Notes: generated by a model not told the origin, from the letters alone. A stretch of 64,000 bases of DNA from a virus (IMGVR_UViG_3300042901_002340), one strand, 5' to 3'; shown: positions 17,066-62,800, counted from the stretch's first letter. Numbers and translations: made by a program.

Positions 17066-19099
17066 TTATTCTTGGTTATTTTTTTCCATTTCTTCATGAA
17101 TTTCAGATTCCGTTATAAGTTCCGAATTTTCAAATTCACCCTCGTCTTCCTCCTTAATTCCAGTACCTTTCTGTGCATCTATTAATGAATTATAAACATT
17201 GGCAACAGCCTGAGGTACAAGCTTTTTGAACCCAACATAATCTTCGGATTCTATTTTCTTTCTAACGTCACTACCACTCGACGATCTTTTAGTTTGTATT
17301 ATCTTTATATCTTCAGGGAAATCACCACCTGCCTTTTTGAGGTAGTCAGCTTGTTTATTGTAGTCCTCTATCCTATCGTCACCAGCCCCTATGGTTTTAG
17401 GAATAAATCCATGTTCCTTAGCCTTTCCGTATATAGGTCCAAGAAGACCCCTATTGACAACAAAATAACCAGAAATCTTTCCAGGATTATCTTTAACTAT
17501 TCCCTCCATATAGCGGGATATTAATTTCTCATCGTATGGGGATTTACCAGATTTATTATGTCCCGGATGAACTACAGCAATAATACTAGGCAGGTCATTC
17601 TCCTTGTATAACTGATCAACCATTTTTAAATGTCCATTATGAAAAGGTTGAAATCTACCAACAAGTAGATTAACAGGTTGGAGCTTTTTTTCTTCCTTGT
17701 CGCTGTCCTCGTTGATTTCTTTTGATTTATCTTTCTTGCTAGTGTCTATCGTTTCTAAAGCTGAAATAAATTCGTTGTAAGAATAAAAAGGATCGTCAGT
17801 ATCAGATTCCTCAGAATTATCAGATTCGCTAGTAACATAATCTATTTTCTTGGAAGATAGATTATTTTTCTTGAAATCCATAAATGATGGTATAGCTTCA
17901 GATTCCTGTATAGCGGGTTTGGTTTCCTTAGCAACAACTCTTTCTATATCGCTAACAACTATATTAAATTGATCTATTATACCAGAAGTTATTATTCCAC
18001 TGGCTCTTTTTCTTATCTTTCTAAATGAGTTAAGCATAAGTTTAAATAGGGACTCGTAGGAATCGTCGGTATCAAGATATTTAAGAACTCTTTTATCCTT
18101 TATCATATCAAGATTCAACCTAAATTCATCTTTCTTCAAGTAATCAGGCTCTTGAAAATCAGCTCCCCTGTATTTATAGGCATATTCACCTAGAAATTTA
18201 ACGAAAACGTCAGACATAAAAGAAATGTATCTCTCGTCGTCAGTATTACCCGAAACGTTAAACGACTCAACACCTTCCTCCAATATGAAATTCATAATAT
18301 CCATTATAGTAAGACCAAGAAAATCGCTAGGTTTTTCATCAGATCTTCTGCTATATTTTTCCTTTGCCATTTCCGTGAATACTGGATCCACCATCTTGGA
18401 TAATATTGGTTCCTTCCCATTATCTTCCTCACCGAATCTAAAAACTATTCCCTCTATCGGTTTATCAAGATCGTTATTAAGTGCACTAGTCTTAGCTTCT
18501 GGATTAAGAACACCAATTATGTACCTAACAAAACTTTTAGTTTTAAATTCGGAAACTAATTGATCAAAAGGAGTTCGAAGAAAATCGAGGATCTGATTTT
18601 TCTGATCCTCGGTTAGCATACCCTGGAATATTATGGGAGGTCTTTCAACACCAAGAATATCAGCCCAGTTATCAAGTTGTTCCTGATCCTGTATTGTCGA
18701 AGCTGGTTTACCATTTTCGTTTTTGGTGTGTATATATGAAAGTATCAGATTGTTCTTAGGCAATCTATCATAAGCAATCTCCACAGGTTGATTATTTGAA
18801 AAATACTCAAGACCGAATCTCCATCCTCTAGGAATCTCATTAAGTATATGCGGAGGAAGTGATTCTATATAATTTATAGGCTTCTCGTAATATTTCATAA
18901 GGGTACGATCAACAAGAGTTATTGGATATCTCTGATCTCTCTTATAAAAATTAAATCTACCAGTTTCTGAATTTCTTTCAAAAACAAAAGCAGAACCGTC
19001 CATTTTTTCATTAATGGTCACATAGGAGTTAAAGAGATTATCGATGAAATCCTTACCCTTTTTGTTATAAATATCATATAAATGACTAATCCCTGCCAT
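17066..19099 (-). CDS. fusion: ATP-dependent (RNA) ligase-like nucleotidyltransferase + HIGH-family (cytidylyl/NMNAT-like) nucleotidyltransferase
   Basis: N-half: motif I NEKMDGS, GLEYF, IEGIVFR, LSKMVD. C-part: VGRFQPFHNGH, GAGDDR, SGSDVRKKI. Acidic linker between them. Confidence 0.78.
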   Translation of the reverse strand: MAGISHLYDIYNKKGKDFIDNLFNSYVTINEKMDGSAFVFERNSETGRFNFYKRDQRYPITLVDRTLMKYYEKPINYIESLPPHILNEIPRGWRFGLEYFSNNQPVEIAYDRLPKNNLILSYIHTKNENGKPASTIQDQEQLDNWADILGVERPPIIFQGMLTEDQKNQILDFLRTPFDQLVSEFKTKSFVRYIIGVLNPEAKTSALNNDLDKPIEGIVFRFGEEDNGKEPILSKMVDPVFTEMAKEKYSRRSDEKPSDFLGLTIMDIMNFILEEGVESFNVSGNTDDERYISFMSDVFVKFLGEYAYKYRGADFQEPDYLKKDEFRLNLDMIKDKRVLKYLDTDDSYESLFKLMLNSFRKIRKRASGIITSGIIDQFNIVVSDIERVVAKETKPAIQESEAIPSFMDFKKNNLSSKKIDYVTSESDNSEESDTDDPFYSYNEFISALETIDTSKKDKSKEINEDSDKEEKKLQPVNLLVGRFQPFHNGHLKMVDQLYKENDLPSIIAVVHPGHNKSGKSPYDEKLISRYMEGIVKDNPGKISGYFVVNRGLLGPIYGKAKEHGFIPKTIGAGDDRIEDYNKQADYLKKAGGDFPEDIKIIQTKRSSSGSDVRKKIESEDYVGFKKLVPQAVANVYNSLIDAQKGTGIKEEDEGEFENSELITESEIHEEMEKNNQE

Positions 19100-31662: not shown

Positions 31663-34600
31663 TTAACCTTGGATATCGCTATTAACTAATCCACTATTTT
31701 CTGATACGGTAGAACAATCTATCAGATAACTAAATCCTGAAGCTACTACAACAGGCGTAGGGTTAGCGAAGTTATTCGATGTTACATTAGCTCCATATAG
31801 AGTCTGAGCAAACGCAACTACTTCCTGCCCAGTGGAAAGTGAGGTTCTTATTATTCTCAACTCAGCAGAAGCACCAACGAAAACTCCGCTATTACCGCCC
31901 GATGAAACTGAAGCAAATATTCTATCACCCACCGAATAAGGCAAGGTTCCACTTCCTGAGGTTGTTCTATCAATAAGTCGATTTGTAGTTCCTGTCCCAT
32001 TTTTGAATATACTACAAGATCCAGTTTGATCTTTTCCAAACTGCCAAGTAACGGTCGGACTCTGACCTGCAGTTATTGTAGGTAGGATTGAAGCAGTAGG
32101 AAGTCCGTTAGCGCCAAAGTCAACATAACCACCATATCCATCACAGGTTTTATAGAAAAGCCTTGGGCTTCCAATATTTGCAGTGCTTGTTTTAGAAACC
32201 CACATAAGATCCACATACTGACAACCAGTTGCTCCAGTTGAGGTATTAGTAATAGTTCCACCAGAAGAAAGGATCTCGCCGGTTGAGAAATTAATATAGG
32301 AGGTCACTGCTGTCGGCAGTCCTGTATCAAAAACAAGTCCTCTTATATAGCGAAGTTTTGGGTTATCTGAGCGATCATTGAGAAACACCCTGTAGTTTGT
32401 TGTTGTACCGTCAGTATAAACTGGAATATAATCACGTGATAATGATGATGGAACTTTTAGATAAACAGCTCCAGCTGACAGTGGGTCAGGAAATACGGAA
32501 TTTAAAAATCCACCAACATAAGTAATGGTATAGTTACTTGATATGTTAAATCCATATATTTTTTTAACAAGACCAACGGAGTATTTATATGATGGTACAA
32601 TTGTCTCTGGCCCGATTATATTATGGTATATCGAAGCAGTAGAATCTATACTTCCGTCCGTATTAAGTCTTATAATACCTGGACAGGTGATTCCCTTATA
32701 TCTACTAAACCTTCCACCAACATACACCTTATTTGCAAAACCAGGAGGAGTAATTGGGCTATAAATATCATAAACTGTATCATTAAATCCATTAGCATCT
32801 CTAAAATTGGTATTAGCAAATGGCGATAACTGATGTCCTCCACTCGAAGTATTATCATAAAAAGTAACAATCCTTCTAAAAAAGCCACCATTTATCTCAA
32901 TAAAATTACCGCCAGCCCAATAACTGCCTGTGGCAAAATTAAATCCTACTGTCATGAAAGCAAATTCAGCTAGGCTTGTGAGGGAATACGTAACGGTGGA
33001 AAATCCAATTGTAGTAATCTTAAGTCCTGTAGTTGAATCTATCTCTATCATGTGTTTGATTGGGAAATCTGTAGCACCTGTGGTATTCCTATATGCCGTG
33101 AAAGTACCTCCAACCATCAAATCACCAGTATTTCCGAAACACAAACAATATGGTTGATGATTGGGTCCAACAAAACCCGGTCCATTAGCGGTAGGGGTTA
33201 ATGACGGGAATGTACTTACACATTTACCTATATTACTTCCTCTCGCATGAATTTTTATAATTTTATTTCTAATTCTTGTAGTACTAGGCATCTCTTCATA
33301 TGTGGTAAAGGTACCAACAGCATATATAGAACTATCATCATCATATATAGCATTAAATACCGTTGAATTCGCAGAAAATCCAGACCTTTGATTAGCGCTA
33401 AAATTAAAGTCTTCCGTACCAAATAGTGAATCCAGACAAACGATTCCATATCGATTTAATCCGGGTGAAGTAATCACACTTCTCCATGCAAAGTTTCCAT
33501 ATACAAAAATTCTATCATTGTTACCATCATAAAGTATACCATTAACAGAGTTGACGTAACGCACATTCAATTGTGCAAGGTATCCTCTGAATTCCAAATC
33601 CATCTCTCCCGTTTGGTTAACCTTACATATACCTAGATTAGCCGTTGGATTTATCCCGACAGGAACACCATTATAATATTTAAAATTACCAACGAATATC
33701 ATACTTCCATCGTTTGTTTGTACCGCGCCATTTACAACAGCATTAAAACGATCATTACCCGTTAGAGAATTTGAAAATCCACTACCAAATATATTTAACG
33801 CTGATAAATAATCAAGACTCATATCAACAGCACCAACTTTATAACTACCTATAGTATCATCAGAAGCGCTACTATAAGCGGTTGGTGTTGCAATTATCAT
33901 ATCATTCTCCCAAACCGTATTTGAGGAAATATCAAAAACATCCCTTAGAGTTTCGGGTGCAAGAGATGTTCTATATTTTCTGGCGCTCAGACTCGTTGTT
34001 GGTTGTCTTACCTCATTTACTTTTCTAACGTGATAAGAAAAAGGTCCACCAGTTCCGCCTGTAAATCCTCCACTTGTACCAAAAACTGTCTGAGCCATAT
34101 TTCCACTGGAAACAGATCCCGACGGCTTTCCATATAAAACTGGATTTCCTGTATAATCATTAAATTCAAATGTTCTTATTGCATTAGAGGTTGTTCTAAT
34201 TGATATTCCATTCTCGTATGAGGGTGAGGTAGGATTTGAAGTCAATATGTACGTTGATGTTAGAGGGGAAGTTATGGTTACACCTCCCGTGTGATTAAAT
34301 GAACTACCATTTATCCGAAGATTCCCTGTTGCTACATCCAGAATACCGCCAACTCCAATACTTACATTACTAGAAAATACAAAATCTCCATTTCCATAAA
34401 TTCTAAAATCCCCCTGATTGTTTCTAAATGTGCAATAATCCGATGAAATAATAGTTCTAGCAAGACCACTATCTATTAGAAAATCATCATTGGCTGTTAT
34501 ATAGAATGATCCACCACTATCGAATTTTAATCCTGGATTATTACCAGTTGAATTCCAATAGAATGATGGGACATCACCAGAAATTGCTCCATTTTTGGAA

Positions 34601-35142
34601 AATGCCATCACTGGTCTATCAACCTGATCCAACGTTGAAACCAAAACCTTGGAATTATTAGGATTTGATTGTGAAGGGATAAGATCAATATCATTTATCA
34701 GAAGTGAAGTATTAGATGCACCTGTTATACCACCAGGATTCTTGAATCCTATGACGGACTTGTCATTTATACCACCAGGTCCCAGTATATTTGAATAGGA
34801 TTGGAAATATCTGGAATTTAAAAAAGAATAACCAGTATTAACCCAATTTAAGCCATCATAAATTTTTATATCACCATCACTTACCGAGTTATCTATCCAA
34901 ACATCATTTATAAATCTGATTGGTTCGGTTGGTTGTTTATACCACTGGGAAGCTCTGGATCCAGTATTACCCATTGCTCCTCTTTTACCTGCAGGTCCAT
35001 ATATGCCAGTTGCACCTCTAGGACCAGGATGTCCATCAGGTCCTATCGCAAAAGATAGAATCTGATCAAAATTATAATTGATTTTTCCTATTATCTCCTT
35101 CTCGGTGTCACCCTTAAATATGTATTTAGTATTAAAATGCAT
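31663..35142 (-). CDS. tail fibre/receptor-binding protein: collagen-like segment + delta-60-like beta-propeller insert
   Basis: GD..KINYNF N-terminus, Gly-X-Y run, repeats such as FNDTVYDI..KVYVGGRFSRYKG..IIRLNTDGSID. Confidence 0.7.
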   Translation of the reverse strand: MHFNTKYIFKGDTEKEIIGKINYNFDQILSFAIGPDGHPGPRGATGIYGPAGKRGAMGNTGSRASQWYKQPTEPIRFINDVWIDNSVSDGDIKIYDGLNWVNTGYSFLNSRYFQSYSNILGPGGINDKSVIGFKNPGGITGASNTSLLINDIDLIPSQSNPNNSKVLVSTLDQVDRPVMAFSKNGAISGDVPSFYWNSTGNNPGLKFDSGGSFYITANDDFLIDSGLARTIISSDYCTFRNNQGDFRIYGNGDFVFSSNVSIGVGGILDVATGNLRINGSSFNHTGGVTITSPLTSTYILTSNPTSPSYENGISIRTTSNAIRTFEFNDYTGNPVLYGKPSGSVSSGNMAQTVFGTSGGFTGGTGGPFSYHVRKVNEVRQPTTSLSARKYRTSLAPETLRDVFDISSNTVWENDMIIATPTAYSSASDDTIGSYKVGAVDMSLDYLSALNIFGSGFSNSLTGNDRFNAVVNGAVQTNDGSMIFVGNFKYYNGVPVGINPTANLGICKVNQTGEMDLEFRGYLAQLNVRYVNSVNGILYDGNNDRIFVYGNFAWRSVITSPGLNRYGIVCLDSLFGTEDFNFSANQRSGFSANSTVFNAIYDDDSSIYAVGTFTTYEEMPSTTRIRNKIIKIHARGSNIGKCVSTFPSLTPTANGPGFVGPNHQPYCLCFGNTGDLMVGGTFTAYRNTTGATDFPIKHMIEIDSTTGLKITTIGFSTVTYSLTSLAEFAFMTVGFNFATGSYWAGGNFIEINGGFFRRIVTFYDNTSSGGHQLSPFANTNFRDANGFNDTVYDIYSPITPPGFANKVYVGGRFSRYKGITCPGIIRLNTDGSIDSTASIYHNIIGPETIVPSYKYSVGLVKKIYGFNISSNYTITYVGGFLNSVFPDPLSAGAVYLKVPSSLSRDYIPVYTDGTTTNYRVFLNDRSDNPKLRYIRGLVFDTGLPTAVTSYINFSTGEILSSGGTITNTSTGATGCQYVDLMWVSKTSTANIGSPRLFYKTCDGYGGYVDFGANGLPTASILPTITAGQSPTVTWQFGKDQTGSCSIFKNGTGTTNRLIDRTTSGSGTLPYSVGDRIFASVSSGGNSGVFVGASAELRIIRTSLSTGQEVVAFAQTLYGANVTSNNFANPTPVVVASGFSYLIDCSTVSENSGLVNSDIQG

Positions 35143-35150
35143 CTTTTTTA

Positions 35151-36833
35151 TTAATTTGCTATTGAATTATAAGTTGATATAACCCCACATTGTGGTGCGT
35201 TTAAAGTTCCTCCCCATGCTGAATAATAAACTCTGAACCATCTATTAGCAATAGACGTACCTCCAGATCCGGTCATATTTATTAAGGTTATATCAATATT
35301 TGCTGCATACCCATTTAATATCACTTCAGATTGATATCCTAGTGTTGAAGGAGGGGTTTGTTCCAGGTAATCAGTATTTAAGCCTATATATTTAAAGCAA
35401 CTTCCCGTTGCTCCTGGATTATCACTTCTAACAGTAAAACTTATAGCCTCGTAATTATCCAAAATATTTAACCATCCACCATTTTCACCACCAAGATAAC
35501 CACCGGTAGATGGGGTGAATATGGATATTCCTCTATTTCCAGGGGATGCAGACGGGGATTTTCCTATTATATAATCAGCACCATTATTAACATAAAAGCA
35601 TCCATTAATAAATCCGGTCGATGTTATGGATGGCACAATTGAAACCCAATTAACTGTACCTACTGATGTTGAACTACTTCCACTCTGTGTTAATTGTTGA
35701 GGTACCTGAACTGGTTTAACAATCTTATCCATATATGTTACACCATCACCGGTAACAGTAAATAGCTGATAATATGGTGAGTTTTGATATACATTCATAA
35801 GAACCGTATCTCTGACACCGGGTGAATTGTAGACATATCTAAGATTACCAGAATTTGTATCGCTCGAGATCAAATCCAAAGCATATCGACTCTCCGATGA
35901 TCTTGTTGTTACGTTTAATGAGGTATTTAGATAAAATCTATTAACATTCCATGCTACGTTTCTGGTTGAAAATAGGGCTTTACCTGTTCCAAGATCAAAA
36001 ATTATATTTTCCTTGGAGGTAAAACTTACCACATTTGGGGATGATGAAAGATAATTGAAACCAATCGAATTTATTAAGAATCTACCGGTGTTAGATTTTA
36101 TAGAGAAATATCCATTTGATGTCCCGGTTCCTCTTAGATTTATGTTAAGATAATCATTCTTCCATAATAAACCATAGGGTCCTCTTTCCGCGGTTGGTCC
36201 AGGATTCCAAAGAATTCTAGGAGTTCTTGCAGTGAAATTCGCATCACCTGCATAATCACCCTTGCTAAACTCCAGAAGATTCTTAGATGTATTGAGACTG
36301 TCTGTCGCAATTACGAATTTGGAATACTGAGGATTTGCATAGGAATTTTCCGAACCTGGTGAACCACTGGATAGATCAGTATCACTTATAACAACAGTAC
36401 AGCTAATTGGTGTTTGTGATGATATAAAATACCCCTTAAACGCACTTATTCCGTTTAAAGTTGATAATGGACCAAAAACGTCAAACAAGTCGGTTGATTT
36501 TATATTAAATCCGTAGTAATTCCACCCGGAATTTGATGAAAATTGATAAACAAGATTTTCGTCATTTACATCAAGCCAATAGTCTCCATCTATGGAAGAT
36601 GATATTGATGGCTGGCAAACACCAACGGTCCATATGGTTCCTCTGATACCCGAATTGCCATATGACCCAACCGGTCCAGGTGGTCCTTTTGGTCCAGGTG
36701 GTCCTTTTGGTCCAACCCTACCATATGGACCTCCACCAAAGGAAACCAATCTTTCAAAGTTGTAATTTAGCTTATCAGTTAGATTTTTTTGAGAATCACC
36801 GTCCTCTATTCTTAATAGTTTTATGAGAGCCAT
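35151..36833 (-). CDS. tail fibre-like protein with collagen-like segment (paralog)
   Basis: GDSQ..KLNYNF, GPKGPPGPKGPPGPVG, RGTIW, GDYW. Confidence 0.7.
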   Translation of the reverse strand: MALIKLLRIEDGDSQKNLTDKLNYNFERLVSFGGGPYGRVGPKGPPGPKGPPGPVGSYGNSGIRGTIWTVGVCQPSISSSIDGDYWLDVNDENLVYQFSSNSGWNYYGFNIKSTDLFDVFGPLSTLNGISAFKGYFISSQTPISCTVVISDTDLSSGSPGSENSYANPQYSKFVIATDSLNTSKNLLEFSKGDYAGDANFTARTPRILWNPGPTAERGPYGLLWKNDYLNINLRGTGTSNGYFSIKSNTGRFLINSIGFNYLSSSPNVVSFTSKENIIFDLGTGKALFSTRNVAWNVNRFYLNTSLNVTTRSSESRYALDLISSDTNSGNLRYVYNSPGVRDTVLMNVYQNSPYYQLFTVTGDGVTYMDKIVKPVQVPQQLTQSGSSSTSVGTVNWVSIVPSITSTGFINGCFYVNNGADYIIGKSPSASPGNRGISIFTPSTGGYLGGENGGWLNILDNYEAISFTVRSDNPGATGSCFKYIGLNTDYLEQTPPSTLGYQSEVILNGYAANIDITLINMTGSGGTSIANRWFRVYYSAWGGTLNAPQCGVISTYNSIAN

Positions 36834-36857
36834 CTATACAGTTTAATTATCTTAGAC

Positions 36858-36865
36858 TATATATC
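36858..36865 (-). promoter_or_regulatory. GATATATA putative late promoter
   Basis: Overlaps the TGA of 36864..38462, 25 nt upstream of 36833. Confidence 0.6.
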
Positions 36866-38462
36866 AAACTGTGAAAGATCCTCCAGAAGATCCTCCAGTT
36901 GGTCCAAATTGACCATAAGCCCTATAATAAACTGTTGTGGTACTTCCAGTTGCTCCTTTAATTATTGTGAAATCCACAGAAGTAGCTGGATTGTTACTCA
37001 TATCTACCTTTAAAACCACACCCGATGTTGTACCAACTCCAATCTTAGTAAATAAAGTATTATTACCGCTATTATACATGCCGTTATAAATCGGTATGTC
37101 AGGACTAGCATATACACTTATATCTATGGATTGTCCATTTTCAATTCCTCCTGGACCCCATAGGGATGATGATGGATCACTAAATAAACCAATTCCCCTT
37201 CCGTTATATCCTGATCCTAAAGATATTATGAAAGTGTTACCATTTCTAATAACAGAAGATTGAACTGGTCCTCCAGGTCTGGATATGAAATACCATTGTG
37301 AACCTGAACCATCAGGAAGGCCTCCAGAGTTCTGAAATGTGGGACTTTGATAACTTTGATATGTTACTCCACTTTTAATTTTTTTTGTTCTTATTTTACC
37401 CTTTGTGTTTATATAGAATTCTCTATCAGTTGCTGTTTCAAGAGAAACGTTATAAACATTTTTTGATATCGTATTAAATGTGTCAGCGGTTCTTTGTGTC
37501 CTTAACCCTGCAGTACCGCCAAAATTAATATCCACCGAAGGAAGGTTTCCAGTTGGATCTCCATTTACATCAACAGTACTTTTAAATGATGCATGGCCAC
37601 CCGTTATGCTTATATTATCACTAAGTATATTAAAATCGCCAATAGCTGGGGTTAATGACTGCATTTTAATTCCACCAGTAGCAGATATACCGGATCCTGA
37701 AGTAGCCCCATAATTTATATCAATTCCCGATCCAGTAGAAACATCGAAATTTTGGGAGCTGGAAGAAAAACCACCAGATGCACCTACTAGTAGTGAGCCA
37801 CCGGGAACATCAAACTTTAAACCATTGTCGGTTGGTGCCGAACTGGACCAAGAAAAAGTTGGGTGTAATGCATAATTACCAGGGTTAGCCAATATGATAT
37901 CACTTTTCATAAATTCAAGAAGCGCAGAAGGGTCCCCAGCACTATCAGTTGATATTAAGAATTTTGCTAATTTTTCATTTATTATACCAGACTCTGGAGA
38001 CCTATCAGAAATTATAAAAGTACAATTTTCTGGGGTTGGTTGATCAAATTTAACAGAAATTCCAGTTCCCCCGTTGGTAAAATATGAATCTACGTCATTG
38101 AATATGTTACCTGAAGACGATAAGCTATACCCACTATCGATCCATCCGGATGGACCAAATTGATAGATTTGGCTATCTGTATTATTTACCCAATAATCCC
38201 CGTAAACAACGGAATTACCTGATCCAAAAGGTGAAGATGGAGCTAAATCCTGTATAAACCATCTTGTTCCTCTAGGTCCATCATTACCAGTTGAACCAAT
38301 TGGCCCATTACTTCCAATTGCTCCTCTATCCCCACTTGGTCCAGTCTCACCAACTGATCCCCCATGAGACTCGACAATTTCGTCAAAATTGTTATTAATC
38401 TTATCTATAGCAAGATTCTGGCCGTCGCTATAATTTATAAATCTTATATTGGTTACTGGCAT
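36864..38462 (-). CDS. tail fibre-like protein with collagen-like segment (paralog)
   Basis: SDG..KINNNF, Gly-X-Y run, RGTRW, GDYW; same architecture as the two downstream genes. Confidence 0.7.
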   Translation of the reverse strand: MPVTNIRFINYSDGQNLAIDKINNNFDEIVESHGGSVGETGPSGDRGAIGSNGPIGSTGNDGPRGTRWFIQDLAPSSPFGSGNSVVYGDYWVNNTDSQIYQFGPSGWIDSGYSLSSSGNIFNDVDSYFTNGGTGISVKFDQPTPENCTFIISDRSPESGIINEKLAKFLISTDSAGDPSALLEFMKSDIILANPGNYALHPTFSWSSSAPTDNGLKFDVPGGSLLVGASGGFSSSSQNFDVSTGSGIDINYGATSGSGISATGGIKMQSLTPAIGDFNILSDNISITGGHASFKSTVDVNGDPTGNLPSVDINFGGTAGLRTQRTADTFNTISKNVYNVSLETATDREFYINTKGKIRTKKIKSGVTYQSYQSPTFQNSGGLPDGSGSQWYFISRPGGPVQSSVIRNGNTFIISLGSGYNGRGIGLFSDPSSSLWGPGGIENGQSIDISVYASPDIPIYNGMYNSGNNTLFTKIGVGTTSGVVLKVDMSNNPATSVDFTIIKGATGSTTTVYYRAYGQFGPTGGSSGGSFTV

Positions 38463-51023: not shown

Positions 51024-51797
51024 ATGCCAAGAAAAAAAGCAAAAAACGAACCAATTCCGATCAAAACGGAGAAAAAGCAACCAAAATCAACAAAAACTTC
51101 AAAGGTTGACAGCTTACCAAAAGGACCAATTCTACAAAAAGAGGATTTCAATCACATTAAATTTACTGATTCACAATTGAAATTTTTCAAAACGATCGAA
51201 AATAATTTTCTAACAGTTTGCACTGGACCAGCGGGTACTGCAAAAACTTTCGTGGCATGTTACGCAGCACTGGATCTCATAAGAAAGGGCGAGCATTCAA
51301 AAATAATATTAGCGAGACCCGCAGTAGAATCGGGAGAAAATCTAGGATTTCTACCCGGATCTGTTGACGAAAAAATAGCTCCATATATGGAAGGATATAT
51401 TTCCAATATGGAAAAAATATTAAAAGCCAAGGAAAAAATAAAACTCATGACAGATACAAAAACTATCGATATGCAACCATTAGCTTTCATGAGAAGTAGA
51501 ACATTCGATGATACCATACTAATTCTAGATGAAGCCCAAAATGCAGATCTCAGACAAATAATGTTGGTTGTAACCAGAATGGGTCAGAACTCAAGAATAA
51601 TTATATGTGGGGATGTAACACAGTGGGATCTCAAGGCAAGGAAAAAAGATCTACTCACATTTTCAGAAAAAATAGCAAAAGGGGTAGATCAATGTGGTGC
51701 TTTCGTTTTCACAAGGGAAGATATAGTTAGAAATCCTATACTCATACAACTCACAGATAACTACGAAAAATACAAGGAAGAAAATAATCTAGATTAA
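51024..51797 (+). CDS. phoH: PhoH family ATPase
   Basis: GPAGTAKT, ARPAVE..GENLGFLPG, PLAFMRSRTF, ILDEAQN, TRMG, GDVTQWD, DIVRNP. Confidence 0.95.
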   Translation: MPRKKAKNEPIPIKTEKKQPKSTKTSKVDSLPKGPILQKEDFNHIKFTDSQLKFFKTIENNFLTVCTGPAGTAKTFVACYAALDLIRKGEHSKIILARPAVESGENLGFLPGSVDEKIAPYMEGYISNMEKILKAKEKIKLMTDTKTIDMQPLAFMRSRTFDDTILILDEAQNADLRQIMLVVTRMGQNSRIIICGDVTQWDLKARKKDLLTFSEKIAKGVDQCGAFVFTREDIVRNPILIQLTDNYEKYKEENNLD

Positions 51798-54700
51798 TTA
51801 CCCATCCTTTCTAAATGTTGCGTCCGGGTTATTATAAACAATAAATCCGGAAGAAAAAGGAATAGTTTCACTTCTTAATATAGCAGCCTGCTCTTCTGCA
51901 AGATCCTTAGATAATTTATCAACCTGATAATCTCTACCAGGAAATACCTCAGGCTCTCCATAATCAAAAGAGTTAACAAAATCCGGACGTCTATCGTCCG
52001 GATTTTTTTGTTTATGATTAATAACCTCAATGTATCCTGGATTGGTTCGTACGTACACGTTACCTGCCGCGTCTTCCACGCTATTGTAAATTGTATAGTT
52101 ACCAGGGGCTGTAAAAGTATAGATGAAATAAGGGGTGTCTTTTACGTTTAAGATCTCCTCCTCTGTTATGGAGTTACTAAGTATCCATTTATTATTTTTC
52201 TTACCATATATGTTTGAAGCGTAATTATTAAAAACAACCGTTGTCATAAGTGGTATCTGCATACCACTATCAGTCGAGTGAACATCACACCAAGTCCATG
52301 CACCAGATCCAGGTCTAGATATGATTTGTCCCATATTGATTCCAAGATCCGCTTTATATCTTTTAGATAATACACCAAATCCAGTACCATTTTCTATAAA
52401 TATATACGAATCCCCATCAGCATCGGTTGAAGGATTTGAATAATAACCTCCCATAAATAAGTTTCCGTCATCATCAGAAGTCATAGTAAAAGTATTTATT
52501 GATGCACTACCAAAATTAATTGTGGATAGAACCCTTCCACTAAGATCCGTTTTAGAAACATAATTAAATGGTGGATCTATAAAATTTCTGGAAGATTTCT
52601 TATAGCTTATATAATATTGATCAGATAAAGATAACTGAACATCGCTTAAAGATGTCGCGGAGGAAGAAAGATTAAATGATGATTCAAAATATGTTTTAGG
52701 AGTTCCCTGTTCAGTTAAACCAACAGTAAGAAAATAAGTTTTTAATGCCGAATCAGCAACAAAATTATTTCCGAAATAATTACCAGATTCACCAAAAGTA
52801 GTTGTTAAATAATACATCGATTGATTGTTCGTAGCTTTTGGGATGAATGAATTACCTGATTTTCCACTCAGATACCCGCCAGCTATACCAACGCCTCTAT
52901 TGTCAACTATAAGATAGAATTGTTCATATAAGCTCTCCGTAGTGGAAGGAAAGTATACCCCACCCATGGTAAATGTTCTATTTGAATTTCCTGTTATTAT
53001 AGTACTAGAATCATTATTCATAGATTTACAGCTACCTATATTTTTAATAGATTGTGTGGATGAACCAATCTGTGAAGTTGTTGAATTAATAGTAGCCATA
53101 AGCGAAAGATCATCCGAGGATAACCTAACATAAGAAAGTACGGAGTCACTACTCCATGTTTGTGATATCGGATATGTAGTACCTAATATTACATCGGATG
53201 TATAATAGCCGTCATTTGTTCTATTCCATAAATTTTTTAATGTGGAAACATCGGCAGTTTTTATAACTGATCTATTTGAAGAAAGGTTAACCGCTGATTT
53301 AACAGTTAAATCTATCGAATATTTGGTAACATCAAGTTTTGTTTCCTTTATATCCCCTCTTGTGGACATATATTTTGCAGGAAAATGTCTAAAACCAAGA
53401 CCTCTATAAGATTTTCTAACATCACTAATATAATCAGATCCGTTCCCTCCAAGACCACTAAATGATGTTACACTACCCAAATCTCTTCCTATTTTAGCAA
53501 CAAATGGACTATTACATAATATTCTATTTGTATTCCAGTATTGGGTTCTGGAATTAATTCCCCTAATCCCAGGGAAAACCCCAATTTTAGTCTCATTGAA
53601 TGTAAAATTACCGGTCTCTCCATCATCCAATGGGAATGGACCAGTAGTTCCAGTTGCATATTCTACAAAAAATTTAAGGCCCGATAGATTGCTTAAATTC
53701 TCTATATCTGTTATTATATAAGACGTATTAAAAGAACCGCCTGTTATATCTATAACATTCCCAGTAACAATCGACTGAAGAGTTGAAGTTTGATCTCCGT
53801 TAATATCACCATAATTAAAAACAAAATATTCAGCATTCTCCAATAAGGAATTAGATCCAAAATCAGCATAAAAACCAGGATCAGTTGGCGGCGAAGATAA
53901 CATATATTCCCACGCACCTGTTCCTATAGTGTTATTAGCAGAGACCCATGGAAATTCAGATAAGTTCTCATTGTAATAATTAACATTGGTTAATCCAGCA
54001 GGAGCTCCTGTCGGACCTCCTCTTAATGCATTCTCACTTTCAAGGGAGTCCCAAATATATGGTCCATCCTCGATATATCTAGAAAAGTAACCAGACACTG
54101 CAACAAAATTATCGTCCTCCGAAGGAGCAATATCCTGAACATATGTTCTATATCCTCTAAAAGGTATTATAGCTTCAACCGAGCCATATTCACTATAACT
54201 AACAACAAATCCCATGGTATTACCATCACGAGAATTTGAAGGGTAATTGGAGTAATTTATAGATCCACCAAAAGTGGGATTTAGATTCCTTATACTTGCA
54301 ACATTGCCCACACTATCATAACCAAAATTAGCCTCAACATTACCGGTTAGAAATCCACCAAGATAGTATTTTATACCATTCCTAGTTTTTATTGAAGTTG
54401 AACATGTTACATTAATACTACCTGAAGTGTTAAGTGGAGATAATTGTGTTAGAGTTATTATATCTCTGAAATATGTTGACTGTATCAAATTTGACTCCTG
54501 CTTATCATCAAAAGTTTCAATTGGCCAATTGTTCCAATATTCTTGCTTTCCAGCTCTTCCATCAGCAATATCACTTAGCTTAGTTGTAAGAAAAAGATTT
54601 CTTTCATCCAATCCAGGAAATCTACTAGCCAAATAATCATCCTGATATACTCTCCATTCTGGATAAGACCATGTGTATTTATTAACCTTTGGTAAGGGAA

Positions 54701-55907
54701 TATTATTTAATCCTGCGGTCTCATTAAAATATGTAAAATTCCATCCGGTCGCACCAGCATGTTTAGAAGATGCGTATATATGAGGTTGATCATAATTAAA
54801 GGAGGATAGAGCATTATAACATAGTACCCATAACGAATTCTCATATAGAGTTAAGCTACCCTGCTTTACATTATTTTTTATTAATTTAATATCGAGAACA
54901 TCATTATTCTCTATATAGGTTTGGCTCGAGCTCGGAAGTCCTGTTCCATCTGTAAATCGATCAAGGGTGGTACCATTAAAATGCCAAAATCCACTACCCT
55001 GACGTAATTCTCCATCACCAAAAGTTAAAAAAACGTGACCATTAGGTCTAGACACAACCTTAGTTACAGGCCCAGCAAAACTCTCAGTACCATCAGGAAA
55101 AAAGAAAGAATTTGGGAAATTCCAGAATTTTTTACCATTGAAAAAAGATAGACCCTGATCCGTACCTATCCACAGGTTACCGTCCTCATCAAGATCTATG
55201 GAATATATGTTATCAGATAGTATTTCTGATGTTTTTGTATTATAAACCTCAACCTGCTCTATAATTTCTCCCACACCTCTAAGATACTGAACCTCTTGAG
55301 TTCCCTGTGGCATAATAAATAGTCCTTCAGATGTTGCAACATAGTAAAAGTAATCCTTTCCCTCATATCCTTTAGCCTTTATGTCATAAATATGTGGCCA
55401 AGTATAACCAGGAACAGTTTCTTGCCATTTGTCAATTTCTTTAAGATAATAGAAAAGCCTACCACCAGTAACACCGTTAATTTCGGTGTACCCTGTAGTT
55501 CCTGTTCCACCTATACCATTAAGAGGTGTTGAAAATGCAAGTATATCGTCACCGAAAGGGCACGCATACACTAGCGATATTTCTTGAGGTTCATTGAAAA
55601 CCCCAAGATCGGAGAATTTCCAATTTTTACCTATTGATACATCGTTTGTATCCATCGAAAAAACAGCAAACTCGTTCAAACCTGCAACTGGACCTTGAGC
55701 AACACCGCACCATAAGAAATCATCCTTATCAATATCTATACTTCTGGTATCTAAAAAATATGGAAATCCACTAGGCACTGCGGAATTAGTATAATCATAA
55801 TATTCCCACGCTTCACCATTAAATCTTCTAATGTCCTGACCACAGCCCCAAACATAAGATTCCCTATCCAGAGCTATTTGATTCATTATTAAACCGTAAC
55901 TTGCCAT
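51798..55907 (-). CDS. putative virion protein with beta-propeller (Reg_prop-like) repeats and a C-terminal PKD/Ig-like domain
   Basis: SDNIYSIDLDEDGNLWIGTDQGLSFFNG, SIDIDKDDFLWCG, TSDDDGNLFMGGY, YTFTAPGNYTI. Confidence 0.65.
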   Translation of the reverse strand: MASYGLIMNQIALDRESYVWGCGQDIRRFNGEAWEYYDYTNSAVPSGFPYFLDTRSIDIDKDDFLWCGVAQGPVAGLNEFAVFSMDTNDVSIGKNWKFSDLGVFNEPQEISLVYACPFGDDILAFSTPLNGIGGTGTTGYTEINGVTGGRLFYYLKEIDKWQETVPGYTWPHIYDIKAKGYEGKDYFYYVATSEGLFIMPQGTQEVQYLRGVGEIIEQVEVYNTKTSEILSDNIYSIDLDEDGNLWIGTDQGLSFFNGKKFWNFPNSFFFPDGTESFAGPVTKVVSRPNGHVFLTFGDGELRQGSGFWHFNGTTLDRFTDGTGLPSSSQTYIENNDVLDIKLIKNNVKQGSLTLYENSLWVLCYNALSSFNYDQPHIYASSKHAGATGWNFTYFNETAGLNNIPLPKVNKYTWSYPEWRVYQDDYLASRFPGLDERNLFLTTKLSDIADGRAGKQEYWNNWPIETFDDKQESNLIQSTYFRDIITLTQLSPLNTSGSINVTCSTSIKTRNGIKYYLGGFLTGNVEANFGYDSVGNVASIRNLNPTFGGSINYSNYPSNSRDGNTMGFVVSYSEYGSVEAIIPFRGYRTYVQDIAPSEDDNFVAVSGYFSRYIEDGPYIWDSLESENALRGGPTGAPAGLTNVNYYNENLSEFPWVSANNTIGTGAWEYMLSSPPTDPGFYADFGSNSLLENAEYFVFNYGDINGDQTSTLQSIVTGNVIDITGGSFNTSYIITDIENLSNLSGLKFFVEYATGTTGPFPLDDGETGNFTFNETKIGVFPGIRGINSRTQYWNTNRILCNSPFVAKIGRDLGSVTSFSGLGGNGSDYISDVRKSYRGLGFRHFPAKYMSTRGDIKETKLDVTKYSIDLTVKSAVNLSSNRSVIKTADVSTLKNLWNRTNDGYYTSDVILGTTYPISQTWSSDSVLSYVRLSSDDLSLMATINSTTSQIGSSTQSIKNIGSCKSMNNDSSTIITGNSNRTFTMGGVYFPSTTESLYEQFYLIVDNRGVGIAGGYLSGKSGNSFIPKATNNQSMYYLTTTFGESGNYFGNNFVADSALKTYFLTVGLTEQGTPKTYFESSFNLSSSATSLSDVQLSLSDQYYISYKKSSRNFIDPPFNYVSKTDLSGRVLSTINFGSASINTFTMTSDDDGNLFMGGYYSNPSTDADGDSYIFIENGTGFGVLSKRYKADLGINMGQIISRPGSGAWTWCDVHSTDSGMQIPLMTTVVFNNYASNIYGKKNNKWILSNSITEEEILNVKDTPYFIYTFTAPGNYTIYNSVEDAAGNVYVRTNPGYIEVINHKQKNPDDRRPDFVNSFDYGEPEVFPGRDYQVDKLSKDLAEEQAAILRSETIPFSSGFIVYNNPDATFRKDG

Positions 55908-57850: not shown

Positions 57851-57870
57851 CTATTAATTTTTATTCAGAT

Positions 57871-57878
57871 TATATATC
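57871..57878 (-). promoter_or_regulatory. GATATATA putative late promoter
   Basis: Motif 21 nt upstream of 57850. Confidence 0.65.
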
Positions 57879-57899
57879 TAAATAAAATAGGTACAAAAA

Positions 57900-58865
57900 C
57901 TATTGAGAATTTCTTTTTTCTCTTGCGTATAATATTGCCTGGACGTAGTTATATGAATTGTGATTTTTGTCAATCCCACTAAAATCATGGTCCCATGGTG
58001 CAGTGTTTATAAAATCTCCCTTATAAAAAACTTTTCCGTCCATATTATTAGTAATACCTGCATTATGCATGATTTTATATTTATACCATTCTGTTGTTCC
58101 ATATGAGCTACCCCAACTAAAGCCAAGTTCATCAGATATTCTAACATCATTACCCCTTTTAATCCCACACCATAAAACAGCCCACATATCAGCACACCAT
58201 TTTTGTATTGGATTATAATCTTTAAGATCCGAATCATCCAATGTACTTCTTTCAATTTGTTCCCGATCACTCATATACTTATAGAGATCGAGAGAAAGAA
58301 ATTCAACCTCCTTCCAAAAATCGCCATCTATCCCCTTCATAAGATATTGAGCACCTCCAGAGTTTTTATTATTTTCGGAGATGATATCCGGATCAACCCC
58401 GGCGATTTCACACATTTCATTAAAGAGATCAACGGATTTACTTTTTATATAATCTGAACCTATATAGGAAACAGTATCACTAAGATACCAAGTTTTATCT
58501 CCGGTTAATATATCAAAGTTTGGTAGCTCCCTGAATATTATATCTGAATCATGGTAGAATATATTTTCATCAGATAGCTCCGGATATCTAGTAAAATGTT
58601 TATAAAGTATATTTGGTCTTACTATCGGGATGTATCCGTAATTTTCGATTGCATCCTTTTTATAAAAGAAAACCCTGACATACGGGTATTTTTTAGCCAA
58701 GTTCATTCCCTCGCGAGATGGAGAATTATCATATCCAAATATTATTTCTATCCAGTTTGGATTTATCCCACTTTTCATTGCATTATGTATGAAAACCTCC
58801 ACTTGCCAATGAAAATATGGCACGTCAGGCTGTGCGCAAATGAAAACAATCTTATTCTGCATCAA
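57900..58865 (-). CDS. GT-A fold glycosyltransferase resembling GT96/GT95 peptidyl O-glycosyltransferases (SGT1/HPAT-like)
   Basis: PYFHWQVEVFIHNAMKSG, YIPIVRP, DxD FYHDSDIIFR, GGAQY, WCADMWA, IMHNAG; ATG probably at 58862. Confidence 0.68.
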   Translation of the reverse strand: MMQNKIVFICAQPDVPYFHWQVEVFIHNAMKSGINPNWIEIIFGYDNSPSREGMNLAKKYPYVRVFFYKKDAIENYGYIPIVRPNILYKHFTRYPELSDENIFYHDSDIIFRELPNFDILTGDKTWYLSDTVSYIGSDYIKSKSVDLFNEMCEIAGVDPDIISENNKNSGGAQYLMKGIDGDFWKEVEFLSLDLYKYMSDREQIERSTLDDSDLKDYNPIQKWCADMWAVLWCGIKRGNDVRISDELGFSWGSSYGTTEWYKYKIMHNAGITNNMDGKVFYKGDFINTAPWDHDFSGIDKNHNSYNYVQAILYAREKRNSQ

Positions 58866-58906
58866 TCAAATTTTAATCATTATAGAATAATAAATTTAAT
58901 TTGTTT

Positions 58907-59833
58907 CTAAGAACATCCAATATATTGGTTACCCTCAGTTTTGAAATTTAGAAATATTGCACCATCACCATCAATTGCTCCTCTACTATATGAAAATGGA
59001 CCGACAAAAGCAGTACATGATGGGTAATTCACATTAGAGGTAATACTAGGATTACCACAATATGCCATAAGGTTTAAACAAGTTGTTTCTATTCCAGTTA
59101 GTGCTGCACCAAAACTAATTCCTTGAAGCGAACCAGTAAGATAAGCACCAATCCATAGGGTATTTCCATTTGGAACTGTAATATTATATTGGTTAGCCGA
59201 ACTAAAGGAAGTTCCCAAAATAGCACCATTGACAACCACTTGCCAGGTTGCTCCAAAATCCTCACTTTTTACAATAGTAACATTGGAATCACCAGGTGAG
59301 GAAGAAATAGATCCTGATCTCTTAGCGTATATGGTTACATTCCTAAGATTGTCACATGGACTATCGTAAGCGAAATCCCCAGCACCGTCCCAGAACCAAA
59401 TACTTGTTCCGTCGGAATAATAACCAGGCTCAGCAAAATAACCAATCCCACCACAAGGATCAGTAGGTTCATAAATATAGAGGTTTGTACCACCAAAATA
59501 ATAATCGGTAGGTGCAAAGAAATAATTATCACATGCAAGCTGAGGTTCAGATGGATCATATCCATAAATTACTCCTGAACACCCTAGGGTTGTTGTTGTT
59601 GTCGTCGTCGTAGTTATACCAGATATTGGTATTGTTATCTGATTTGTACAATTAGTGGTGTTTGATTTTACTACAAAACTAGTAGCTGCATCAGGAACAA
59701 CTATGGGATACCCACTTAGTAAGGAAGCTCTACTAACACCAGTTACAATGGGTGTAACCAAATCAAGATTTGTAAAAATCGAAAAACTACCTGTGTCTAT
59801 ACCAGCTGTTGTTAATTGTATTGTTACTGTCAT
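58907..59833 (-). CDS. putative virion protein with a poly-Thr (T9) linker and Cys-containing small domains
   Basis: 308 aa; ISGITTTTTTTTTLGC; PGYYSDG repeat-like module. Confidence 0.65.
   Translation of the reverse strand: MTVTIQLTTAGIDTGSFSIFTNLDLVTPIVTGVSRASLLSGYPIVVPDAATSFVVKSNTTNCTNQITIPISGITTTTTTTTTLGCSGVIYGYDPSEPQLACDNYFFAPTDYYFGGTNLYIYEPTDPCGGIGYFAEPGYYSDGTSIWFWDGAGDFAYDSPCDNLRNVTIYAKRSGSISSSPGDSNVTIVKSEDFGATWQVVVNGAILGTSFSSANQYNITVPNGNTLWIGAYLTGSLQGISFGAALTGIETTCLNLMAYCGNPSITSNVNYPSCTAFVGPFSYSRGAIDGDGAIFLNFKTEGNQYIGCS
59588..59614 (-). repeat. poly-Thr coding tract (9 codons, mixed ACT/ACG/ACA/ACC)
   Basis: Read directly from the sequence. Confidence 0.9.
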
Positions 59834-59846
59834 TTTTTATTACATT

Positions 59847-62800
59847 TTAAGTTGATACTGTTATTGCATATGAATACTGAATTTGTCCTGGTGCAGCATT
59901 AAGAGTTGCCACATATACTGGAGCTGCGTACGTAAAATTAACAGGACCAATAAGACTACCACCACCTAATGAGGCTTTACTAAATGTACCTATACCTGTA
60001 CCCTGAAACCTAATAACGAAATTACCACCGGTTGTTGGTAAAAAATTACTATTCATAGGAAGTTCAACAACCCCATTATTGGGTATTGTTGCAAACCCAG
60101 CTGATATATCGCTACGAGGAACGGATTCATAGAAAATCTGCCATGTTCCAGTCACAGTATTACCAGTCGTGTTATAAACAGTGAATGTTCCGAAAGGAGA
60201 TACAGTAGTGGTTGTTGTTGTTGATGTTGTTGTCGGATAATTAACAACAGCAGTACCTGATAGGATACAATCAAAAGGAGGAGCAGTCGTGGTGGTTGTT
60301 GTAGTAGGGGCCAACGTTGTCGTTGTTGTCGTACTAGTCGTTGTTGTCGTTGTTGTAGTACTAGTCGTTGTTGTCGTACTAGTCGTTGTTGTTGTTGTCG
60401 TAACAGGAGAACCACCAGTGTAACCAAAATCAGGAATTAATAACGCACTACCACCAATCAATGAAGGTGGCGCATAATATGGGCCATTGACTAGAATTGC
60501 ATTATTCACAGCAGTATTTATAGGACCCACAGTGGCTAATAAAGATCCAGCATCATTAGGTATTACCCTATAATGGAAATTTCCTATATTTTCGAGACCA
60601 GAGTTATTAAGTTGTGATGCTGCAGTAGCAAGTGTTAACACACGGAATTTACCAAGGCCAAAGAAAATAAGGGTTCCTGGGAATGGATAAGTTTCGTTAC
60701 CTGTTGATATTTTTAGAGTGTCAAGATTTCTCAGAGAGTGCAATTCATATCCACCCAACCAATCATTATTAAATTCATAATCGTACCAGGAATGTGCATA
60801 CCCATCATCCCATGTGCTTTCGTTGAATATCTGCCAGCATAATCTTTTTGTTCCCCAATATTTAAGATTAGGATTCGGATATTCCTCGATATTCTCATCC
60901 CAATAAACATAGAAATCCTCAGAATTAACTCCACCAGTAAGAGATGCTGAAACCGAAAGTATATTAATAGATCCGCTCTCCTCAACCCTTAGAGGAACAC
61001 CATTCTGATCAGCACCAAGTTCACTTGGTGCATATATTGTAATAGTAACAGGATCTTCCTGTGGGTTTTCACACGAAGCAAAGTAATCAGGATATGTTCT
61101 AAGAGAGTTTATTGCTGATGTTATTTCATTGGCACTGTTGTACAGACTATCGCCAGTCTCGCTATATCCTATAAGTCTATCACCTACATAAACTGATAAA
61201 TTTCCACCACCAAGGATCCTTTGTGATCCATAGATAGAGGTATCGACATAAAGCTTTTGCGGAGATATGGTTTGTAATAAAACACCACTCCATATGGATT
61301 CTAGAGTTATTGGTATATAAAATGTAAATTCATCAACGACCATTGCGTACCATCTCCCATTAATCTGTGGTATACTTCCAGTGATGGTTACTTCGTCACC
61401 ATCGGAAAGATCATGGAATATAGTTGTTGTAACGTTTGCATATCCATACTGACCTGTGGTAATCTCCAAAGATTCAATAGCGGATACTGTAAGTGTTTTC
61501 TGATTCAATGTTATGGTACCATACGCCCCGTTTGGTGGTTGTGTCGTTCTAACATAAACATCCTGTCCGTCGTCAGCCTTATTACCATACGTAGCAAAAT
61601 CAAGAATCTCGGATGGTATTGCCTTTTTAAGTTCATCCATCGTAGATCCCTCGGAAGGGTATTCCCATATTGAGTCATATTCTCTCCATTCCCTATCAAC
61701 ATTGTTCCAAAGATAATTTTCAACCTCTCTATATCTAGCCCAAGAATCAATATCAACCGTTTTTGGATCGACAAAAATTGAAGAGTTTTTAATAACACTA
61801 GTCTTTGCATTAAAAGCGTCATACGTGTTGCATATGACTTGATATTCTCCAGTGTAAGGTAAGAAGTGGGCTAGCTTATAATAATCAACTATGGATCCTC
61901 TAAATTCGAAATGATACGGTGTACCTGATTGGGTAGCAGATTTATTTACAATCCATTCAATTTCCATCATATTGGAGAAATCCACGTTCTTCCAATTTAA
62001 CATGGAATAATTCTGAACGTCCGAATATAATTCAGTATCACCAAAAATTCCAGTTGTTGAGTCATCGAGTGCTATCTCATAATCACCACTACTATAATAA
62101 ACAGCTGTAACTGTACCGAATATTCCGGTTGACTTAACTCTCACTCTGTCTCCTGGTCTATATGTGGGTATTAGTAGGGCATCCCAATCTATATTCAATT
62201 CATCCCATTCCCATCTATCTGGGGAAAGCTCCAGTATTACTGGCATTCCAACAGGGGTTTCGTACATTTCTCCAGTTACTGGATCCGTATATGCGGGAGG
62301 ATCTAGTTTTCCATCACCAAGCTCTATTATCTTGCCATTTTGCTTAAGATTGTAGAATTCAGCAATAGCAGATAGGAGAGATTCGTTTTGAACCGGTGTG
62401 TAATTTTGTTGAGAATCCAGGGGGTTTATAATATTACCGAGATCCGACAATGTTGCAGGAACTATTTGTATTAGACCCGACATCGATGTTGGATTTGTTT
62501 TGGAATAATATCGTATAGTACCAGATGCCTCAGGAGCTATGTACCACTGCATAGAATATCCACCAGTTGCTCCATTATTAACTATACCAGTAGGAACATT
62601 AAGAGGCCACTGTAGGGGTGAATTTGGATAACCGGAGAAAGATGTTATATTGAAACTAGCTCCAGTTGAATTGGGATCCTTAACATTGAAGGTGTAGGAT
62701 TTTCCAGCTTGCAATTTTAGAATTGGATTATCTCCAGTAACACCATATGGTATATACCCATTAAATCTTATAGCACTCCCAGTACCACCAGGGAAAGAAA

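Follow-up and report, generated by a model that had tools for sequence, protein, structure and literature searches.

To our knowledge, glycosylation of virions by phage-encoded enzymes has been shown only for mycobacteriophages, whose recognition by antibodies it alters, and as far as we know the acceptor in these phages is not a run of threonine (Thr) residues. The mycobacteriophages Che8, Corndog, and Myrna use transferases of their own to glycosylate the C termini of capsid and tail-tube proteins (Freeman et al. 2023, as outlined in PMC12363180 and PMC12619734). In this study, we analyzed a 64,000-nucleotide stretch of DNA from the virus IMGVR_UViG_3300042901_002340 (the window), in which a gene of the protein family phrog_4417, encoding a predicted glycosyltransferase (GT) with a DxD motif, directly follows two genes whose products contain poly-Thr runs. 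We assign a probability of about 0.8 to the reading that the phrog_4417 enzyme O-glycosylates Thr tracts of virion proteins. The preliminary description of this DNA had proposed a phage glycosyltransferase acting on the Thr tracts of neighboring virion proteins, and this proposal is supported by the predicted GT-A fold, the adjacency of enzyme and runs, and their joint gain and loss.

The proposed system resembles that of the mycobacteriophages, as the latter is outlined in these sources, in that a cytoplasmic transferase encoded by the phage would act on the phage's own structural proteins, which are candidate acceptors here. The capsid and tail-tube C termini that are modified in mycobacteriophages are also the places where Thr tags stand in iLp84, R9.1, phiCTP1, VPE25, and SA2, five cultured phages that carry the phrog_4417 enzyme. 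The two systems differ in enzyme family, and with regard to homology to Che8 gp110 or Corndog gp38, the organism tallies of the 77 phage records matched by tblastn included no Mycobacterium phage. They differ further in the acceptor, which is proposed here to be a homopolymeric Thr run and which in the jumbo phage takes the form of internal linkers in baseplate-associated proteins rather than tails on the capsid or tail tube. The hosts are Bacteroidota and Bacillota instead of Actinomycetota.

Other comparable systems act outside phages. The GT8-like group of protein-acting enzymes (glycogenin and GlyE of GT8, AgtA of GT77, and UGGT of GT24) provided the best fold matches and has the DxD motif and, judging by motif pattern, a C-terminal His in common with the phage protein. 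These enzymes are cytoplasmic or soluble, several of them glycosylate proteins, and GlyE decorates the serine (Ser)-rich repeats of the pneumococcal serine-rich-repeat protein pathway. In contrast to this group, phrog_4417 has approximately 60 extra residues and invariant motifs of its own (WQ, GGAQ, QxWCADMW, and HNAG). The plant and algal hydroxyproline O-arabinosyltransferase (GT95, HPAT) and the peptidyl-serine alpha-galactosyltransferase SGT1 (GT96) resemble it in the proposed task, which is to initiate O-glycosylation where hydroxy-amino acids form runs in extended structural proteins; the plant enzymes are Golgi membrane proteins, whereas the phrog_4417 enzyme is predicted to be soluble. 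Mucin-type O-glycosylation (animal ppGalNAc-transferases, GT27) and the glycosylated Pro/Thr linkers of microbial glycoside hydrolases display the same acceptor architecture, in which Thr/Ser/Pro-rich runs connect small globular domains and, once glycosylated, form stiff stalks. This is an analogy only; enzyme family and cell compartment are different, and no lectin domain is present here. Giant viruses glycosylate their virion proteins (the capsid of PBCV-1, the fibrils of mimivirus) with GT-A enzymes of their own and do not depend on the host machinery for it. However, their acceptors (Asn sequons in PBCV-1) and hosts differ, and the fold likeness of PBCV-1 A64R (Z 10.3) and mimivirus R699 (Z 10.8) is weaker than that of the GT8 group.

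Threonine runs and the enzyme gene

The window corresponds to the minus strand of positions 319430-383429 in a complete phage genome of 430,120 bp with direct terminal repeats and a GC content of approximately 34%. As described preliminarily, three co-directional ORFs (open reading frames) follow one another, all of them on the minus strand of the window and separated by gaps of 13 and 41 nt. The first encodes a 1590-aa protein (59847..>64000); its start at 64619 lies outside the window, which holds the C-terminal 1384 aa. The second encodes a 308-aa protein (58907..59833). The third is the phrog_4417 gene (57900..58865), with 321 aa when read from TTG. The ATG at 58862 is the probable start; read from there, the protein has 320 aa and is as long as the database copies. 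The gene is present as a single copy in the whole genome.

Thr runs were sought in all stop-to-stop frames of at least 60 aa across the whole genome, using the pattern [TS]{6,} with at least five Thr. Only four runs were obtained, all of them in the two genes directly upstream of the phrog_4417 gene, so the earlier statement that these are the only such tracts in 64 kb holds across 430 kb. Three are contained in the final 390 residues of the 1590-aa protein (coordinates on the minus strand here and below). Run 1 (60315..60401) comprises 29 residues in the order T7-S-T5-S-T8-S-T6, where Tn denotes n consecutive Thr. Run 2 (60285..60305) is T7, followed by a Cys-containing segment of about 17 aa, and run 3 (60204..60233) is a Thr/Ser run of 10 residues. 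Distal to them lies a terminal domain of about 118 aa (59847..60203), which would cap the proposed stalk. The fourth run is the T9 linker of the 308-aa protein (residues 74-82, 59588..59614). A DNA microsatellite as the source of the runs was ruled out by their mixed codons (ACA 21, ACG 10, ACT 9, and ACC 3), and the runs are therefore maintained as amino acid sequence. Among relatives that are 95 to 99% identical, the sub-runs of run 1 vary in length and order.

Both tract-bearing proteins are candidate acceptors. The 1590-aa protein, which appears to be associated with the baseplate, belongs to phrog_28177, a family of unknown function, and a sequence search against the PDB returned no match. 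The predicted structure of the 308-aa protein consists of an N-terminal beta-sandwich (residues 1-70), the T9 linker, and a beta-rich C-terminal part. Its mean predicted local distance difference test (pLDDT) score was 70.7, with values below 50 in the linker, which is thus predicted to be disordered. A fold search with this model returned generic Ig-like/beta-sandwich matches only (Z of 6.5 or less). A Thr run of 8 to 16 residues occurred at the same place in all 12 homologs of the 308-aa protein, in which identity outside the run falls to 39%. The same type of N-terminal domain followed by a Thr run was also found upstream of enzymes that are only 40 to 45% identical.

The adjacency of enzyme and Thr runs was evaluated in 80 viral loci with enzyme homologs of 36 to 99% identity, grouped into 53 clusters at 80% enzyme identity (40 to 99% to the query). 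A co-directional ORF with Thr/Ser runs occupied position -1 in 41/53 clusters, and a run-bearing ORF was located within two genes of the enzyme in 47/53. At the other positions from -8 to +8, runs were detected in 34/587 (5.8%; Fisher p = 3.7e-33). The association with Thr-rich ORFs that the preliminary description had suggested looking for was therefore found. After masking of the runs, the 41 upstream proteins, with sizes from 174 to 2231 aa, fell into at least 13 groups without BLAST similarity to each other. Many of them have a beads-on-a-string design, in which linkers of the T6-AAP-T6-EAP type connect small Cys-containing domains.

The enzyme is also encoded by cultured phages. A tblastn search against 50,697 phage records yielded 77 matches, and the hosts of the matching records included Lactobacillus, Enterococcus, Staphylococcus, Lactococcus, Clostridium, Arcanobacterium, and Chryseobacterium. 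All listed records annotate the protein as hypothetical except three, in which it is called "prophage pi2 protein 34" or "with lpxB motif." In siphophages, the enzyme gene is part of the structural operon and comes immediately behind the genes for the tail tube or the capsid. Whole-genome scans of four cultured carriers placed the Thr runs in the virion structural block, mostly near C termini, the exception being a T7 run of VPE25, which lies at a distance of about 20 kb in an unplaced ORF of 76 aa. In iLp84, the major head and major tail proteins end in T7-S-K, and a small T-rich protein precedes the enzyme. The runs of phiCTP1 are found in the portal, gp11, and the tail tube. The major tail protein of VPE25 carries T10 three residues before its end, and more runs occur in ORFs near capsid-region genes. 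SA2 has runs in the major tail protein, in an ORF overlapping the major tail gene, and in a gene annotated as an assembly protease. In Chryseobacterium phage MA9V-3 and Lactobacillus phage Iacchus, the enzyme gene is immediately preceded by T-rich ORFs.

Two short T-rich ORFs were noted separately in these genomes, one overlapping or following the 3' end of the major-tail gene of SA2 (MH356730.1, 51919-52197) and one in the same relation to a capsid-region gene of VPE25 (LT615366.1, 77908-78063). Frameshifting or read-through may turn them into extensions by which some subunits acquire long Thr runs.

Enzyme and runs were gained or lost together in two lineages. Among siphophages of the Lactobacillus casei group, iLp84 and R9.1 have the enzyme as well as T7-T9 tags on the C termini of capsid and tail-tube proteins. 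In CL1 and iLp1308, the capsid protein is 95.7% identical to that of iLp84, and both the enzyme and the tags are missing; the capsid protein ends in IPKP and the tail-tube protein in GSGTGA. R10.1 possesses neither enzyme nor tags. Since the tags are located in separate core genes, 0.5 to 3 kb from the enzyme gene, simple hitch-hiking is unlikely and a single insertion does not suffice to explain the pattern. In the lineage of the window, seven relatives whose 1590-aa protein is 62 to 95% identical have the Thr runs, the second small tract protein, and the enzyme. A complete 289,651-bp relative (G042) encodes a 62%-identical homolog of 1402 aa without Thr runs, and its whole genome contained neither a phrog_4417 member nor a run of seven ACN codons (ACNx7). 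In a 434,509-bp relative, twelve ACNx7 matches were found, all of them in the two genes before its enzyme.

A further observation concerns the enzyme-free Lactobacillus phages. CL1 and iLp1308 (loci L223/L224) have, at 2792-2971, an Ala/Thr/Ser/Val-rich ORF of 59 aa annotated as "major head protein." The T-rich gene and the transferase occupy this site in iLp84, and the region may be a swapped decoration module.

It could be argued that the enzyme glycosylates these virion proteins at sites off the Thr runs, which would then act as flexible linkers or as a docking signal. Runs that are predicted to be disordered would also work as simple spacers, and some enzyme loci are without strict runs. 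We nevertheless regard such off-run modification as unlikely. The Thr run is the only feature common to the at least 13 unrelated neighbor families and, in Bacillota phages, to proteins of the capsid, tail tube, and portal, and the nearly identical capsid bodies of iLp84/R9.1 and CL1/iLp1308 differ at the C-terminal Thr tag. A functionless pairing was also considered, in which enzyme and tract genes form a mobile cassette of two or three genes and the enzyme is inactive or structural. Such a cassette would fit the highly stereotyped arrangement at position -1 and the small N-terminal domain that several neighbor proteins have in common. It is very improbable in view of the diversity of the neighbor families and of catalytic motifs that are invariant over hundreds of homologs, down to about 35% identity. 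Moreover, the mixed codons indicate selection on the amino acid, and tags of the iLp84 type belong to the core genes for capsid and tail tube and not to any cassette.

Several points weigh against glycosylation of the Thr tracts by this enzyme. A strict Thr run within two genes of the enzyme was absent in 6/53 clusters. In the reverse test, arbitrary viral loci that encode at least 8 consecutive Thr were inspected, 62 in all; the enzyme was present in 5, each time directly downstream of the tract gene, and 57/62 had no phrog_4417 member in the stretch fetched. The pairing is not obligatory in either direction: the enzyme strongly predicts tracts, whereas tracts only weakly predict phrog_4417. 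The 53 clusters derive from metagenomic loci of partly shared ancestry and are not fully independent events. No genes for nucleotide-sugar synthesis were seen beside the enzyme, which would consequently need the host pool. The active-site roles of H267, K282, and Q173 are putative, and we only infer the acceptor residue, Thr, and the donor sugar.

The Thr-tract loci without phrog_4417 (among L089-L167) include some giant-virus contigs. In all loci without phrog_4417, the tracts must be served by other enzymes or by none.

Fold and family of the DxD protein

The DxD protein matched phrog_4417, a family of unknown function, with an E value of 1e-65. It had no Pfam match at E<=1 and no sequence match in the PDB, and none of the 240 listed homologs had a precomputed Pfam domain. 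An exhaustive HMMER search returned 840 cluster representatives at E<=0.001, and a word-indexed search returned 1614 proteins, none of which was named among the matches listed. An AlphaFold2 model with 54 homologs as input reached a pLDDT of 96.9 and a predicted template modeling score (pTM) of 0.93. According to this model, the protein is a soluble glycosyltransferase of the GT-A fold. Foldseek returned 237 PDB chains at E<=0.001, the best of which were all GT-A transferases, with a probability of 1.00 to WbbM, UGGT, and AgtA. The highest Z scores were obtained for glycogenin (14.7), the Skp1 alpha-galactosyltransferase AgtA (14.5), the UGGT catalytic domain (13.9), and WbbM (13.8), followed by LgtC and LARGE1 (13.4 each) and GlyE (13.2). 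In the best fold matches, 213 to 243 residues were aligned at 5 to 11% sequence identity. From the nearest folds, all of which are retaining enzymes of the GT8-like group, we infer that the modeled enzyme would be retaining and would form an alpha-linked sugar.

All of the motifs quoted in the preliminary description (YFHWQ, KSG, Y....RP, DSDIIFR, and WCADMWA) were found in the protein. The DxD motif, D106-S-D108 (58542..58550), follows the fourth strand (residues 101-104) and would bind the metal and the nucleotide sugar. It is invariant in sets of 54 and 81 homologs and at least 90% conserved in 150. Q173 (GGAQ), W223, M227, and W228 (QxWCADMW), H267 (HNAG), and K282 are invariant or nearly so among homologs. 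By analogy with GT8 enzymes, in which the DxD motif is combined with a C-terminal His, H267 (58065..58067) is likely the third metal ligand. The model is globular from residue 6, with a first strand at residues 6-13, and has no hydrophobic N-terminal or membrane segment; for this reason, the protein is predicted to be cytoplasmic.

Since transferases of lipopolysaccharide (LPS) synthesis, LgtC and WbbM, are among the nearest folds, a non-protein acceptor has to be considered. The enzyme could modify phage DNA bases, or LPS, teichoic acid, or capsule, and its proximity to Thr-rich proteins would then reflect shared host-interaction modules. In phages, glycosyltransferases are known above all for the glucosylation of DNA and for serotype conversion, as outlined in PMC12619734. 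A non-protein acceptor nevertheless seems quite unlikely to us. The gene is located in late structural operons, after tail-tube or capsid genes in small siphophages, and not in lysogeny or replication modules, and unlike Gtr-type conversion systems the enzyme has no membrane segment. The enrichment of runs at position -1 counts against it as well, and it would leave unexplained why the Thr tags of capsid and tail-tube proteins are lost in enzyme-free phages.

The preliminary description had also placed the enzyme with the eukaryote-type GT95 and GT96 families, and this kinship was not borne out. The Pfam HPAT model (PF23452) matched neither the protein, nor the genome, nor 47 homolog-bearing records at E<=1; for the genome and the records, the search controls included no known HPAT, so that the sensitivity there is unproven. 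Among 54 family members, one was matched by this model at E 0.23, and the sole hint of a link was an ESM-Atlas neighbor cluster with HPAT on 10% of its members. The DxD protein does not have the type II membrane (Golgi) anchor of the GT95 type. The nearest solved folds were glycogenin, AgtA, UGGT, WbbM, and LgtC; the structures compared included none of GT95 or GT96, and we know of none that has been solved for either family. A grouping with GT8, which the preliminary description had listed among the refuting outcomes, is therefore not a fair test of the kinship.

Assignment to other families was examined in the same way. The GT8 model (PF01501) found nothing in the genome at E<=10 and matched 6 of 14 control genomes. 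In the fold comparison, GT8-type enzymes (glycogenin, LgtC, GlyE, and an Anaerococcus GT8) scored Z values of 13.2 to 14.7, with H267 conserved. The GT77 model Nucleotid_trans (PF03407) also found nothing in the genome at E<=10, and the fold match to AgtA is tied with GT8. The DUF7164 model did not match the genome. We filed the protein as an unclassified GT-A family that would, by analogy, work like a mucin-type or serine-rich-repeat protein O-glycosyltransferase. Identity as a major capsid protein, which could be suspected from the gene position in VPE25 and iLp84, was ruled out by the GT-A model and by separately annotated capsid genes.

Many homologs are longer than the protein of the window, with at least 400 aa and two domains in 94 of the 150 closest cluster representatives. 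Where they could be recognized, the added domains were GT2/GT7C transferases (at least 20 of 81), GT6 and GT25 transferases, a methyltransferase, and a radical-SAM/SPASM domain. Fusion partners of this kind, typical of enzymes that build glycans, are expected if the enzyme starts a glycan that is then extended by others. Three fusion proteins noted as examples (P0150, P0125, and P0200) carry radical-SAM/SPASM, methyltransferase, and GT6/GT61-like domains.

Proposed mechanism and significance

We propose that the enzyme would be made late in infection and act in the cytoplasm, where D106, D108, and probably H267 would coordinate a divalent metal. The enzyme would move a sugar from a host nucleotide sugar to the Thr (and Ser) hydroxyls of the disordered runs, before or during virion assembly. 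In the phage of the window, the acceptors would be the baseplate protein in the gp7 position (see below) and the 308-aa protein with the T9 linker. Dense O-glycosylation may turn the runs into stiff, protease-resistant, hydrated mucin-like stalks or a coat. Two glycosylated stalks could thus stand at the periphery of the baseplate, each with a small end domain held off the baseplate. The glycan might serve as a spacer, a shield, or a means of adhesion, as suggested in the preliminary description.

Beyond this locus, we consider it fairly likely that phrog_4417 and the runs represent a minimal, portable glyco-tagging system, in which one soluble transferase is combined with a bare poly-Thr tag that could be attached to any protein of the virion, whether it belongs to the capsid, tail tube, portal, baseplate, or fiber. 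It would operate in phages of Bacteroidota and Bacillota, over a size range that extends from siphophages of 31 kb to jumbo phages of 430 kb, and build mucin-like coats or stalks. It would represent a second form of virion glycosylation, far more widespread than the mycobacteriophage one, with an acceptor rule simple enough to engineer. A literature search found nothing on the phrog_4417 family or on poly-Thr tags in phages; relative to the literature searched, the system is new as a variant of phage virion glycosylation.

If this reading is true, environmental, gut, and dairy phages would commonly have O-glycosylated virions. Among the phages concerned would be therapeutic candidates of Enterococcus and Staphylococcus, in which virion glycans could influence stability, adsorption, and recognition by the immune system. 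A function would be assigned to hundreds of "hypothetical proteins," and the poly-Thr runs of phage structural proteins would be explained. A system of one enzyme and one tag could also be used for phage display or glyco-engineering.

Genome setting and neighboring genes

The placement in the structural block, as described preliminarily, agrees with the genes on both sides. Directly upstream of the 1590-aa gene are a hub gene (phrog_430), a gp25-like wedge gene (phrog_261), and a gp6-like wedge gene (phrog_219, E 6e-32). Because these precede it, the 1590-aa gene was placed in the gp7 position, following what we take to be the gene order of T4. Downstream of the transferase gene are more large virion genes, three of which encode tail-fiber N-terminal motifs. 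A terminator scan found none between the three genes of the locus, and a promoter scan found fewer promoter-like sites than in shuffled sequences. Judged only from the gaps of 13 to 49 nt, the genes may form an operon. The 49-nt gap 3' of the transferase gene (57851-57899, minus strand) contains TAGATATATAAT just ahead of the next virion gene, and GATATATA is a candidate late motif.

The host is likely a member of the Bacteroidota, as judged from sequence relationships. The nearest relatives of the ribonucleotide reductase are found in Tenacibaculum (57% identity) and Cellulophaga (50%) phages. The wedge protein matched huge uncultured phages as well as Prevotella Lak, Tenacibaculum, Chryseobacterium, and Flavobacterium phages. 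The nearest isolates for these two proteins make the Bacteroidota host suggested in the preliminary description plausible.

Further genes of the window were noted. A 1369-aa protein of the virion block (51798-55907, minus strand) showed weak matches to Reg_prop beta-propeller and PKD domains. Next to it, a PhoH-like ATPase (51024-51797, plus strand; phrog_170, E 6e-64) is the sole plus-strand gene within the minus-strand virion block. Three adjoining proteins of 1159, 560, and 532 aa (31663-38462, minus strand) have a common N-terminal motif of the tail-fiber type at residues 25-122. In a 677-aa protein (17066-19099, minus strand), an RNA-ligase domain (residues 26-225) is joined to a cytidylyltransferase-like domain (478-515 onward). 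Finally, a 421-aa glycosyltransferase of the GT2 family (4357-5622, minus strand; PF00535, E 1.9e-7; phrog_13126, "beta-1,4-glycosyltransferase") is encoded among replication genes, 53 kb from the transferase locus, and could extend a glycan or serve otherwise.

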